Sequence record: NC_073324.1
Reading direction: 5' to 3' (one strand)
Length of the DNA stretch: 45,176 nucleotides
DNA from: Escherichia phage vB_EcoS-22664BS2
In this document: positions 266 through 10,894 of the stretch, one piece after another
Layout: every line of letters begins with the position of its first letter
Position numbering within the stretch: position 1 is the first letter of the stretch
The notes under the pieces: generated by a model
Database searches by the model: none
What the model saw: only the letters and a program-made list of their open reading frames with translations
What the model was told of the DNA's origin: nothing
Translations under genes and position numbers: made by a program

Positions 266-574
266 TTGGATAAATTTACTGAAACAGTGACGGGGTGGCT
301 TCTCGCTGCCGCATTAGCTGGTGGGGTAATAGGCTTACGGCAACACAAAGCCACTATTACCGGCCCTGTCGATGCTCTCTGTTTTCTCGCCACTGGCTTT
401 GCGTGCGCCGTATTCGGTGCGCCTCTCGCCGCTCAATGGTTCGGTATCGCAGGTGAACGCGAAATAGCGGGCCTTGGATTCATCATTGCTATTCTCTGGA
501 TGCCAATTTATTCCCGTCTCTCTGGCATTGTCGCCGGAGAATACATCGCACGTCGCGGAGGTGGTAATGAATGA
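266..574 (+). CDS. holin-like membrane protein (about 3 TM segments), TTG start
   Basis: ORF track; GGAGGA 6 nt upstream of TTG; three hydrophobic segments; immediately upstream of endolysin. Confidence 0.5.
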   Translation: MDKFTETVTGWLLAAALAGGVIGLRQHKATITGPVDALCFLATGFACAVFGAPLAAQWFGIAGEREIAGLGFIIAILWMPIYSRLSGIVAGEYIARRGGGNE

Positions 575-839
575 GTTATTCTGGTTTGGTGGTATGCTCG
601 CAATCGGGAGCACATCGCTGTTTAACGTATACCACCCCAGCGTAGATGATGGCCTGTTCGGGCGTGTGCTTTATATTCTGACTGCTATTGTCTGCGCCGC
701 CGGATGTATCCACCTGTTACAGGGCAGCATGTCACCTACGCTACCTGAGACATTAATCACTTTAGTTGCGCTGCGCCAGATTCGTCAGGCGTGGCTGTCG
801 TACGGAGGACATAAGCGTGTCTCGAAACATTTCAGATAA
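567..839 (+). CDS. second small lysis-cassette membrane protein (holin/antiholin-like)
   Basis: ATG at codon 32 of track ORF 474..839, overlapping upstream stop (ATGAATGA); two or three hydrophobic helices and a charged C-terminal tail. Confidence 0.45.
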   Translation: MNELFWFGGMLAIGSTSLFNVYHPSVDDGLFGRVLYILTAIVCAAGCIHLLQGSMSPTLPETLITLVALRQIRQAWLSYGGHKRVSKHFR

Positions 840-1305
840 TGGGTTGCATTTCACCGCAGCGTTTGAGGGGTTCCGCGGAACTGCGTATCGCGCTACGCCA
901 AATGAGAAGTACCTGACTATTGGGTACGGTCATTATGGGCCAGACGTAACGCCAGGCAAGACCATCACCCCGGGACAAGGCCTCCTGTTACTGAATCGTG
1001 ATATGGCTAAGGCCATAGCTGCGGTTGACGCAGCAGCACACCATTCATTGACACAGGCACAGTTCGACGCAGTGTGCGACCTGGTGTATAACGCGGGTGC
1101 CGGTGTGATTGCGGCTACTACTGGCACAGGTAAGGCACTGCGTTCTGGTGACGTCACGACTCTGCGGGCTAAGCTGGCGCTGTTCATCAACCAGAACGGC
1201 AAACCGATACTTGGACTGCGTCGTCGTACCGCCGGTCGTCTGGCGCTGTTCGACGGTAAACCGTGGCAGGAGGCTGAGGCTATCGGGCGCGCGGTGAAAG
1301 GTTGA
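817..1305 (+). CDS. endolysin, phage lysozyme (GH24-like)
   Basis: GTG start with GGAGGA RBS (codon 18 of track ORF 766..1305); EG...TIGYGH and LGLRRR motifs resemble P22/lambda-type lysozymes. Confidence 0.8.
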   Translation: MSRNISDNGLHFTAAFEGFRGTAYRATPNEKYLTIGYGHYGPDVTPGKTITPGQGLLLLNRDMAKAIAAVDAAAHHSLTQAQFDAVCDLVYNAGAGVIAATTGTGKALRSGDVTTLRAKLALFINQNGKPILGLRRRTAGRLALFDGKPWQEAEAIGRAVKG

Positions 1306-8547: not shown

Positions 8548-9006
8548 ATGGGCTTTTTCAAAGTAACTGATGTACCTTCGCGTCGCGTAGTCCAGTACGC
8601 CCGCGTGTCTGGCTCTGGTGAGAACGTGGTGTTTATTGAAGACGAAAGTGTACTTGGTACACCAGTAGACGATATGCCGTTTGCAGACAAGACTGGCATT
8701 GCGCTACCAGCGGCGGGTATGCTTTATGAAATCCCGTATCTGGCTGACGCAGGCGATGTGTATTTCTCTGTACAACCGCAGGACGTTGAACTGGCAGATG
8801 GCAGCGCAACTATCACTGTCGAAGTTAAGGCGGGTAAATCCCCCTATGCACTGGCCTGGTACAAAGACGGCAAGGAAGTAGTAAACGCGCCCGAAGAGGC
8901 TTTGTCTCTGACGGTTAACGCGGTCGGTGAATACTTCGTTAAAGTTACCGATGCTGATGGTGTAGAGGCTGTCAGTAAAGCTGCGAAGGTCACTAAGCCC
9001 GAATGA
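8548..9006 (+). CDS. Ig-like domain protein (possible head decoration protein)
   Basis: C-terminal I-set-like segment ALAWYKDGKEV...GEYFVKVTDADG. Confidence 0.45.
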   Translation: MGFFKVTDVPSRRVVQYARVSGSGENVVFIEDESVLGTPVDDMPFADKTGIALPAAGMLYEIPYLADAGDVYFSVQPQDVELADGSATITVEVKAGKSPYALAWYKDGKEVVNAPEEALSLTVNAVGEYFVKVTDADGVEAVSKAAKVTKPE

Positions 9007-9007
9007 T

Positions 9008-9036
9008 AAAAGGCCCCATTAAGGGGCCTTAGTTTT
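9008..9036. terminator. bidirectional terminator between convergent genes
   Basis: AAAGGCCCC...GGGGCCTT hairpin with T/A runs on both sides. Confidence 0.6.
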
Positions 9037-9239
9037 CAACGGAATCTTGTGTTTAAATCCTGCTCGTGGACGACCCTCAGAACAGTGTCATAATCCCCGT
9101 ATCTTCCAGGTTCAAATATATCTAATGCCTTGTAAGCAGACATTGCGTCAGGGAAAACCTGCAGAACCTTTTTAACACGGCACAAGTCACCGTCGAACTC
9201 TTCATCGAACTCTTGAACTACTTCGCAAATTGCATACAT
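9036..9239 (-). CDS. hypothetical protein (67 aa), moron-like
   Basis: ORF track; own promoter, GGAGGTG RBS and terminator. Confidence 0.5.
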   Translation of the reverse strand: MYAICEVVQEFDEEFDGDLCRVKKVLQVFPDAMSAYKALDIFEPGRYGDYDTVLRVVHEQDLNTRFR

Positions 9240-9266
9240 TTTTCACCTCCTGCTTAAGTTAACTGA

Positions 9267-9295
9267 ATAGTACCCTATTATATTGGGGTGCGCAA
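9267..9295 (-). promoter_or_regulatory. sigma70-like promoter (TTGCGC-N17-TACTAT) for 9036..9239
   Basis: Conserved promoter family. Confidence 0.5.
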
Positions 9296-9361
9296 ACTAT
9301 TTATTCGACTATTCCAGTTATTCCGCTCAATTGTAAATGTTGGAATAAACTATTCGAATAG

Positions 9362-9390
9362 TTGACTTTTCACTGAAAATGTGCTAAGCT
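9362..9390 (+). promoter_or_regulatory. sigma70-like promoter with extended -10 (TTGACT-N17-TGcTAAGCT) driving ncRNA candidate 1
   Basis: Same promoter architecture repeated at 41851-41879. Confidence 0.5.
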
Positions 9391-9393
9391 CCA

Positions 9394-9597
9394 CCTGAGC
9401 TTGTGAAGTATGAACAAGCGACCGCGGCGCGGGCAGGTAACGGAGCGGGACGTAAGTCCTGAGTGTAGTTACGCTGACGCGTTCGGAAGGGCCATAGTCT
9501 ATTGCTTGTGTAAAAAGTAACTGGTTTACTGAGATTACGCCGTTTCTATGTTTAAATGATAAGGACTAGCGCCCCGCTTTATGGCGGGGCTTTACTT
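9394..9597 (+). ncRNA. candidate structured non-coding RNA, copy 1
   Basis: Promoter upstream and hairpin plus T-run terminator at 9569-9597; first 38 nt identical to 41883-41920, rest aligns with indels. Confidence 0.4.
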
Positions 9598-9614
9598 ATC
9601 GAGAAAGGAGAAAC

Positions 9615-10001
9615 ATGAATCTTAAAGCAACTGTCGTAGCGGGAGCATGTTTCATCATCCTGGCTTACACACACGGCATCTACCAGTACCGCATCGGCTG
9701 GAACGAAGGCCGGGCGAATCTCGTTTCTCAGCAACAGCAGAAAGCACAGGCCGAGATGACTAAGAAAACACAACGGCAGCAGCAGGACGAATCAAAGGCC
9801 GCAGCCGCTGACAACGAAGGCAAGACGAAATCAGAGGTGATCACCCGTGAAGTCGTTAAGTACATTAAAACGCCTGGTCGCAGTGTGTGCGCTTTTGACC
9901 CTGAGCGCGTGCAGCTCAAGTCCCGCGCCGTCGCAAACGCCAACTCCATCCCCGGATACGACGATGATGCAGCCGCCGTGCAAACTGGCAGCGCCAAGTA
10001 G
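9615..10001 (+). CDS. i-spanin (Rz-like)
   Basis: N-terminal TM segment, then Gln/Ala-rich coiled coil; AAGGAG RBS. Confidence 0.6.
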   Translation: MNLKATVVAGACFIILAYTHGIYQYRIGWNEGRANLVSQQQQKAQAEMTKKTQRQQQDESKAAAADNEGKTKSEVITREVVKYIKTPGRSVCAFDPERVQLKSRAVANANSIPGYDDDAAAVQTGSAK

Positions 10002-10110
10002 CGACGCGGACGAGGATTTAGCTATCGACGTTCAGAACGCCGAATGCGTACGGCAACTGAGGCTGAAAGTGTTCATGTTGCAGGATTACGTGAGGAATAT
10101 TCTGGAATAG
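9847..10110 (+). CDS. o-spanin (Rz1-like lipoprotein) in +1 frame overlapping the Rz-like gene
   Basis: Signal peptide with lipobox LSAC, Pro-rich mature region; starts inside the Rz-like ORF and ends beyond it. Confidence 0.55.
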   Translation: MKSLSTLKRLVAVCALLTLSACSSSPAPSQTPTPSPDTTMMQPPCKLAAPSSDADEDLAIDVQNAECVRQLRLKVFMLQDYVRNILE

Positions 10111-10192
10111 TTGCCTTGCATGTTGGAATAATTTATTCTTGACATGTAAATCCGGGTGGCCCGGATTCCAACGTCCAGGGGACATACTGACT

Positions 10193-10894
10193 ATGAATCG
10201 TTTTTTACGTTATCCGTTCCAGGAAGAAGCTGGGGCAGAAGATAAAGCTGGTGGCGGTGACGCTCCTAAAATGTACACAGCCGAAGAAGTGCAGGCGCTA
10301 ATTGAGAAAGAAGTCGCCGGGCTTAAGGCCAATCAGGAAGCATTACTGGCGGAGAAGAAAGAAGCCGCTCGTAAAGCAAGAGAGGCCGAAGAAGAACGGC
10401 AGCGCGCACACCAGGAGGCGTTAAAAGCCGCCGGTAAGATGGACGAGTTCGAAAAGACGATTCGTAGCCAGTATGACCCGGTGTTAGCCGAGAAAGACGG
10501 TCGCATCTCCAGAATGGCAGAGCGTATCCTCGGCAGCGAACGTAAAGCGGTGCTAGGCTCTTTCGCGGGTGACTTTATTACCCCAGAAGCAGTGGACATT
10601 CTTGCGCCGTTCGTTAAGACTGAGTTCGAAGGCGATGATGTGGTTACTAAGTTTGTTGGTGCAGACGGTAACGTAATCACGACTGACCCGGAACAGTTCC
10701 GCAAATACCTGCGCGAACACAAGGCGTTTTCGCATTTGATCAAAGCAAATGCAGCTTCCGGCGGCGGGGCTTCCGGTAGCAAAGGCGGCGGGGCCGCACC
10801 AGCGTTTAAAGACATGAGTGAAGCAGAGCGTTTAGCCCTGTATAAATCGAACCCTGCCGAATTTGAACGGCAACTTAAAGCCCTGAGGAAATAA
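10193..10894 (+). CDS. scaffolding protein (putative)
   Basis: ATG at codon 19 of track ORF; charged coiled-coil-rich protein directly upstream of major capsid protein. Confidence 0.65.
   Translation: MNRFLRYPFQEEAGAEDKAGGGDAPKMYTAEEVQALIEKEVAGLKANQEALLAEKKEAARKAREAEEERQRAHQEALKAAGKMDEFEKTIRSQYDPVLAEKDGRISRMAERILGSERKAVLGSFAGDFITPEAVDILAPFVKTEFEGDDVVTKFVGADGNVITTDPEQFRKYLREHKAFSHLIKANAASGGGASGSKGGGAAPAFKDMSEAERLALYKSNPAEFERQLKALRK

Follow-up and report, generated by a model that had tools for sequence, protein, structure and literature searches.

In the genome of Escherichia phage vB_EcoS-22664BS2 (NC_073324.1), a Kagunavirus-like siphophage of the Guernseyvirinae, two overlapping genes are found among the head genes. 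The question raised by this locus is whether they encode the spanin pair of the phage, to which spanin family they would belong, and how their place in the head module is to be understood. The entire stretch of DNA analyzed, 45,176 nt in length, is referred to as the window; its relevant features are compiled in Table 1. As judged from the sequence, the locus very probably codes for a two-component spanin that falls into the "Jersey" family and has an overlapped gene arrangement.

Table 1. Features of the spanin locus, its neighborhood, and its presumed functional partners (window coordinates unless otherwise indicated)
Feature	Position	Strand	Remarks
Holin-family ORFs	266..574, 474..839	+	phrog_2359 and phrog_2508; predicted functional partners
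Endolysin	766..1305	+	Pfam Phage_lysozyme, 2.9e-26; predicted functional partner
Hoc-like Ig head-decoration gene	8548..9006
Terminator-like hairpin	9571..9590	+	GC-rich; short, interrupted T-run; 24 nt upstream of i-spanin ATG
i-spanin Shine-Dalgarno sequence	9605-9610	+	AAGGAG, 4 nt before ATG
i-spanin gene	9615..10001	+	ATG start, 128 aa
i-spanin transmembrane helix	residues ~5-23, nt 9627-9683	+	N-terminal
o-spanin Shine-Dalgarno sequence	9834-9839	+	GAGGTG, 7 nt before GTG
o-spanin gene	9847..10110	+	GTG start, 87 aa, +1 frame relative to i-spanin
i-spanin invariant Cys92	9888-9890	+	in conserved motif ITxxVxxY..PxRxxCxF
o-spanin acylated Cys22 (predicted)	9910-9912	+	lipobox LSAC; lipoprotein signal, residues 1-21
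o-spanin invariant Cys45	9979-9981	+	periplasmic, predicted
o-spanin invariant Cys67	10045-10047	+	periplasmic, predicted
o-spanin conserved C-terminal helix region		+	motif DEDLxxDV..C..LR
Scaffold gene	start ATG 10193, end 10894		phrog_206; major capsid gene next
Short or missing o-spanin CDS in GenBank records of relatives	L001 5836-5982; L006 2853-2996; L007 2847-2993; L010 2655-2813; L008 no CDS

The two overlapping genes and their products

The 128-amino acid product of the first gene would combine a single membrane helix at its N-terminus with a periplasmic domain that is helical for the most part. Its hydrophobic maximum lies at residues 5-23 (1.59 over 19 residues and 2.17 over 15 on the Kyte-Doolittle scale, which was used as our own heuristic for transmembrane calls), and no further hydrophobic segment was found on this scale over the whole protein. 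Viewed along the criteria of Kongari et al. (2018), the protein thus has, by hydropathy, the single N-terminal transmembrane domain of an i-spanin, with the remainder predicted to be periplasmic. Both the ORF and its N-terminal hydrophobic segment had been named in the earlier note and are present. The transmembrane segment is followed by a polar stretch rich in Gln, Lys, and Ala. Single-sequence AlphaFold2 modeling gave a single helix over residues 3-64 (pLDDT 77-89), while the part beyond residue 64 was poorly modeled; with pLDDT values below 50 for residues 68-128, the two-helix-plus-linker layout described for the Jersey family was not confirmed. The modeled helix is compatible with the coiled coil assigned by Pepcoil to residues 33-66 of the K1G i-spanin in SpaninDB, albeit not itself a coiled-coil test; the same database gives an identical AAGGAG Shine-Dalgarno motif for K1G (PMC6139136).

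The second gene overlaps the first by 155 nt in the +1 frame and extends 109 nt beyond its stop codon. The N-terminus of the encoded 87-amino acid protein, MKSLSTLKR-LVAVCALLT-LSA↓C-SSSPAPSQTPTPSP, is made up of a positively charged n-region (MKSLSTLKR), an h-region (LVAVCALLT), and the lipobox LSA↓C, upon which a Pro/Ser/Thr linker follows; seven of the eight prolines are located within the first 25 residues of the mature protein. The residue at position +2 is Ser, and the Lol-avoidance Asp, which would cause retention in the inner membrane, is not present. By our own loose pattern rule for lipoprotein signals, the protein therefore carries a signal for signal peptidase II, with a Cys in the lipobox and a residue other than Asp at +2. 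Periplasmic cysteines that would be available for intermolecular disulfides are predicted in both proteins, namely Cys92 of the i-spanin and Cys45 and Cys67 of the o-spanin. In all these points the description given in the earlier note, an inner lipoprotein ORF in the +1 frame with an LSAC lipobox and a Pro-rich region that runs past the i-spanin stop, agrees with what was found, and a lipoprotein signal, whose functional absence had been proposed as a ground for refutation, is predicted by the pattern rule. Since the o-spanin frame opens only at position 9841, the GTG codon listed in Table 1 is the sole start that gives a signal peptide. When all six frames of the window were searched with the pattern rule, the 87-amino acid ORF was the only match, which leaves no rival o-spanin or u-spanin; a second spanin candidate of either type was not found anywhere in the window, the small ORFs downstream of the endolysin gene having no spanin-like features.

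The locus was compared with its counterparts in ten relatives, giving 11 loci in total. The relatives were the Kagunavirus phages Bas72 and HSE2, the Jerseyvirus phages S120 and BPS11T2, the unclassified Guernseyvirinae phage SE1, the Cornellvirus phage PhiSTP1, the Dhillonvirus phages TheodorHerzl, YD-2008.s, and rolling, and Klebsiella phage Kp4882-1. The o-spanin frame is open in all 11 loci, down to an i-spanin identity of 41%, and each of them keeps the signal peptide, the lipobox Cys, the two further cysteines (45 and 67 as counted in the window o-spanin), and the motif DEDLxxDV...C..LR; the i-spanin motif with its invariant Cys is equally found throughout. The overlap of the two genes varies between 8 and 155 nt among the relatives, and the distant ones start the o-spanin at an ATG codon. 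In a codon-position test of the window against four relatives of equal length, differences in the segment coding for the o-spanin only (10002-10110) fell on o-frame third positions in 8/11, 3/4, 14/23, and 13/21 cases, with very few at o-frame second positions. Those in the i-spanin-only segment are concentrated at i-frame third positions, which are also favored in the overlap; the latter bias fits a tolerant o-spanin signal peptide and linker. This pattern implies that both frames are under purifying selection.

These data bear on the possibility that only the 128-amino acid ORF is a gene, and that the +1 ORF is a chance frame or yields just a 48-amino acid product from an internal ATG, which in the lack of a signal peptide could not be an outer-membrane lipoprotein. 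Such a 48-amino acid form (MMQPPCK...) without signal peptide is indeed annotated as o-spanin in Bas72, S120, SE1, and YD-2008.s, the HSE2 record has no o-spanin CDS at all, the profile phrog_5672 (47 positions) was built on the truncated form and matches residues 41-87 only, and the start codon in the window is a GTG. Against this stands the fact that none of the compared loci has lost the signal peptide or the lipobox Cys, although this is the least conserved part of the o-spanin, and that the signal peptide begins at an ATG in Cornellvirus, Dhillonvirus, and the Klebsiella phage. The GTG of the window is, moreover, preceded by the GAGGTG ribosome binding site, and SpaninDB contains the 87-amino acid form for K1G, K1H, and K1ind. 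Wrong or missing o-spanin starts are a known gene-caller artefact, with 64 wrong starts and 196 missing CDSs counted by Kongari et al. (PMC6139136). The explanation by a chance frame or a short form is, hence, considered extremely improbable, and the start equivalent to GTG 9847, which yields 87 amino acids and restores the lipoprotein signal, is the correct one.

Among the relatives, S120 (L006 2126-2996) has a mosaic relationship to positions 9240-10110 of the window. The untranslated region upstream and the N-terminus of the i-spanin are almost identical in both, and from about i-spanin residue 30 on S120 becomes Jersey-like, which suggests a recombination breakpoint inside the S120 i-spanin gene. 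Divergence from the window in the i-spanin-only segment amounts to 16% for S120 and 32% for BPS11T2.

Affiliation to the Jersey family and comparison with known spanins

Both proteins match PHROG profiles named as Rz-like spanins, the i-spanin phrog_2536 at 1.9e-55 and the o-spanin phrog_1267 at 8.7e-20. Against SpaninDB entries, the i-spanin is 93% identical to that of K1G and the o-spanin 94% identical to that of K1H; the i-spanin of phage Jersey itself is 63% identical over 126 of the 128 amino acids. These values are well above the family threshold of SpaninDB, which requires an identity of 40% or more over no less than 40% of the length. Among the overlapped families tabulated by Kongari et al. 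(2018), the "Jersey" family is the largest; its 27 members, among them Jersey, SETP3, K1G, K1H, K1ind1-3, HK578, and EP23, are described by a 155-bp overlap and constant cysteines at positions 45 and 67. In the supplement, the K1G, K1H, and K1ind proteins are listed with 128 and 87 amino acids and flagged "ovl", frame +1, overlap 155 (PMC6139136). The window pair shares all of these properties as well as the lipobox TLSA↓C, and differs by only a handful of substitutions, which are mostly located in the transmembrane helix and in the signal peptide.

Membership in the sequence families of lambda Rz/Rz1 and of P2 LysC was considered and rejected, because no model of Pfam or NCBIfam scored above its cut-off for either protein. 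At E ≤ 0.1, neither lambda Rz (PF03245) nor Rz1 (PF06085) was matched by either of them; the best Pfam match of the i-spanin was DUF2514 with 16.8 bits against a cut-off of 26, the o-spanin had no Pfam match, and the P2 LysC model NF038368 (P2_Rz1) reached 16.7 bits against a cut-off of 27. The designation "Rz/Rz1-type", which had been used before for this pair, thus holds for the architecture and the presumed function, while for the sequence family it is to be replaced by Jersey.

In architecture, the window pair resembles lambda Rz/Rz1 in being composed of a type II protein of the inner membrane and a lipoprotein of the outer membrane, the latter encoded in the +1 frame and both with periplasmic cysteines, and the same membrane-fusion step after the action of holin and endolysin is presumed. 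In contrast, there is no detectable sequence relationship; the lambda o-spanin gene is fully embedded, whereas that of the window is overlapped; and the window genes are located outside the lysis cassette. In the window o-spanin, a helix is predicted at the C-terminus and there are two periplasmic cysteines where lambda has one, and the i-spanin is shorter (128 versus 153 amino acids), with one periplasmic Cys. P2 LysB/LysC share the overlapped arrangement, with an o-spanin gene in the +1 frame that continues beyond the stop of the i-spanin, but the relationship of LysC to the window protein does not go beyond the sub-threshold match mentioned above, and the P2 genes, unlike the window pair, belong to the lysis cassette. 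The textbook example of spanin genes that are not linked to those of holin and endolysin is T4 PseT.3/PseT.2, whose o-spanin also has two cysteines, which are essential in T4, and a C-terminal helix (PMC6139136); yet the T4 genes are separated, the sequence family is another one, and the i-spanin is devoid of Cys.

Position within the head module and flanking elements

The region is about 95-96% identical to that of many Escherichia Kagunavirus-type siphophages, such as Bas70-76, SCS92, Golestan, and NTEC3, and the Salmonella Jersey-like phages are more distant relatives; in many of the matching GenBank records "Rz-like spanin", "i-spanin", or "o-spanin" is already annotated at the locus. In the window, the holin and endolysin genes are found where the earlier note had placed them (266-1305), and the distance to the spanin genes, given there as about 9 kb, measures 8.3 kb from the endolysin stop to the i-spanin start on the same strand. 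With the Hoc-like gene on one side and the scaffold gene on the other, the spanin pair lies inside the head module. The order Ig-like gene, spanins, scaffold is as had been proposed, but the Ig-like gene is not the direct neighbor, being separated from the spanin genes by 608 nt, in which a small ORF on the minus strand and an untranslated, conserved region are located.

The same order of genes, that is, head morphogenesis, (Hoc-like plus variable insert), spanins, scaffold, and major capsid, is found in Jerseyvirus, Cornellvirus, and Kagunavirus, and in Dhillonvirus the start of the i-spanin gene overlaps the end of the head-morphogenesis gene. The comparison of locus position in related phages, which had been suggested as a check, consequently showed a conserved place in the head module in all four genera, and this location is an old trait common to Guernseyvirinae and Dhillonvirus. 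Separation of the spanin genes from the holin and endolysin genes is also reported in the Schulenberg announcement (PMC6763661), and in the Golestan paper the spanins are ORF7/8, far from ORF66-68 for holins and endolysin. The stretch from the Hoc-like gene to the spanins (9007-9614) is a variable slot, with equivalent gaps in L003, L006, L007, and L008. In the window it is occupied by a 67-amino acid ORF on the minus strand (9036..9239), which has a terminator-like hairpin of its own (9030-9010), in S120 by an adenine methyltransferase gene, in PhiSTP1 by genes for an HNH endonuclease and a transcriptional regulator, and in HSE2 by a different minus-strand ORF.

Within this slot, a stretch of about 200 nt (9392-9600) lies between a promoter-like element and the ribosome binding site of the i-spanin gene; it is the one that had been listed as "ncRNA candidate 1" in the earlier note. 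It is nearly invariant across Kagunavirus and the Jerseyvirus phage S120, is recognizable in BPS11T2, and includes a 36-codon ORF (9410..9520) that is hypothetical in the Bas72 annotation. Its folding is not distinctive (z = -1.74), and convincing compensatory changes were found only in the stem of the terminator-like hairpin, which is kept by such changes in relatives. This hairpin would be expected to limit read-through into the spanin genes. Rfam gave no match, either for the whole window at gathering score or for positions 9000-10250 at E ≤ 1, so that the conserved upstream region fits no described RNA family.

Two copies of a 19-nt direct repeat, ATGTTGGAATAAnnTATTC, at 9337 and 10120, enclose the untranslated region together with the spanin cassette. 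In the form ATGTTGGAATAA(AC/TT)TATTC, the two copies are identical at 17/19 positions, with 0.08 matches expected by chance, and a 13-nt repeat, GAATAGTTGACTT / GAATAGTTGCCTT, is adjacent; the repeats are located at 9337-9368 and 10105-10144. A TTGAC -35-like hexamer lies directly next to each copy of the 19-nt repeat; 17 nt after the first there is an extended -10-like element, TGcTAAGCT, and the downstream copy is invariant in five relatives. The repeats may be duplicated promoter or regulator sites. A sigma-70 consensus scan did not flag TTGACT...TAAGCT at 9362-9396 and gave nothing at 10139; the reading of 9362-9396 as a promoter is, accordingly, by inspection only. The sequence at 10150-10166, in the gap that separates the o-spanin stop codon from the scaffold start, forms a 7-bp hairpin without mismatches, ATCCGGG-TGG-CCCGGAT, and the core of this hairpin, CCGGGTGGCCCGG, does not vary among the Kagunavirus and Jerseyvirus relatives. 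As no T-run follows, it is not a typical terminator.

From these elements it could be conceived that the spanin pair is part of a small self-contained expression unit and not a passive passenger of the head operon, which is regarded as rather unlikely. The parts of the unit may be the promoter-like element with the repeated 19-nt motif, the untranslated RNA of about 200 nt, the hairpin terminator, and the spanin genes. If true, the leader or the terminator would set or time the spanin dosage independently of the holin-endolysin cassette, acting as an attenuator or as a small RNA in its own right. The repeats on both sides could, in addition, be a sign that the spanin unit came into the head module as a mobile insertion.

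Presumed function in lysis

The strongest argument from independent evidence for a spanin function is provided by Klebsiella phage Kp4882-1 (OK490460.1, unannotated; L004 159-2963), which contains a homologous pair with 41% i-spanin identity and a 125-nt overlap. Here, the order of genes is a Q-like antiterminator, an 89-amino acid holin-like membrane protein, the endolysin, the i-/o-spanin pair, an HNH protein, and the small terminase; the endolysin has an N-terminal SAR-like hydrophobic segment, and the spanin pair follows it directly. By gene order, this is the canonical position of spanins in a lambdoid lysis cassette, and the presence of a related pair at that position supports a lysis role of the Jersey-family spanins.

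The competing explanation is that a membrane protein and a lipoprotein with a role outside lysis are encoded, for instance in superinfection exclusion or assembly, as might fit the head module. The location among head genes at a distance of 8.3 kb from the lysis cassette would be in line with this, and phage lipoproteins such as Llp of T5 are known exclusion factors. The literature search, furthermore, revealed no published experimental test of any Jersey-family spanin and, hence, no lysis phenotype; according to Kongari et al., essentially all spanin experiments were done with lambda, to which T4 was added in that paper (PMC6139136). On the other hand, the homologous pair of Kp4882-1 is placed right after the SAR endolysin, the window contains no other spanin candidate despite the Gram-negative host and the holin-endolysin system, and a transmembrane protein with an overlapping lipoprotein and conserved periplasmic cysteines is the signature of spanins. 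Distance does not preclude a lysis function either, as the T4 spanins are also unlinked to t and e and yet complement lambda (PMC6139136). A role outside lysis is, therefore, deemed very improbable. The interpretation as a spanin pair, as given in the earlier note, is upheld by the sequence-level criteria, the PHROG profiles, the identity to K1G and K1H, and the cassette of Kp4882-1.

The spanin genes would be expressed along with the late head genes, and the terminator-like hairpin just upstream would probably keep the spanin level low. Following the models for lambda Rz/Rz1 and T4 PseT.3/PseT.2 as summarized in PMC6139136, the i-spanin would be anchored in the inner membrane, while the o-spanin would be lipidated and sorted to the outer membrane by the Lol system. 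The C-terminal regions of both proteins would then bind to each other across the periplasm through the meshes of the peptidoglycan, and homotypic disulfides would be formed, for the i-spanin via Cys92 and for the o-spanin via Cys45/Cys67. As long as the peptidoglycan is intact, the disulfide-linked complexes would be restrained by it. Upon release of the endolysin by the holins and degradation of the wall, the complexes would collapse and fuse inner and outer membranes, and lysis would be complete. Spanins acting in this passive way need no timing of their own, so that expression with the late structural genes would suffice.

Summarizing, the literature already describes the Jersey family with its overlapped genes and its cysteines, and also its distance from the genes for holin and endolysin, and many GenBank records contain the corresponding annotation. 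With the same pair catalogued at the same place for this phage group, the finding is an ordinary one and carries little weight as a discovery. A practical gain is the correction of the o-spanin annotation, given that many close relatives and phrog_5672 carry the truncation without the lipoprotein signal. For the Jersey family as a whole, the link to a canonical lysis cassette in Kp4882-1 is useful supporting evidence.
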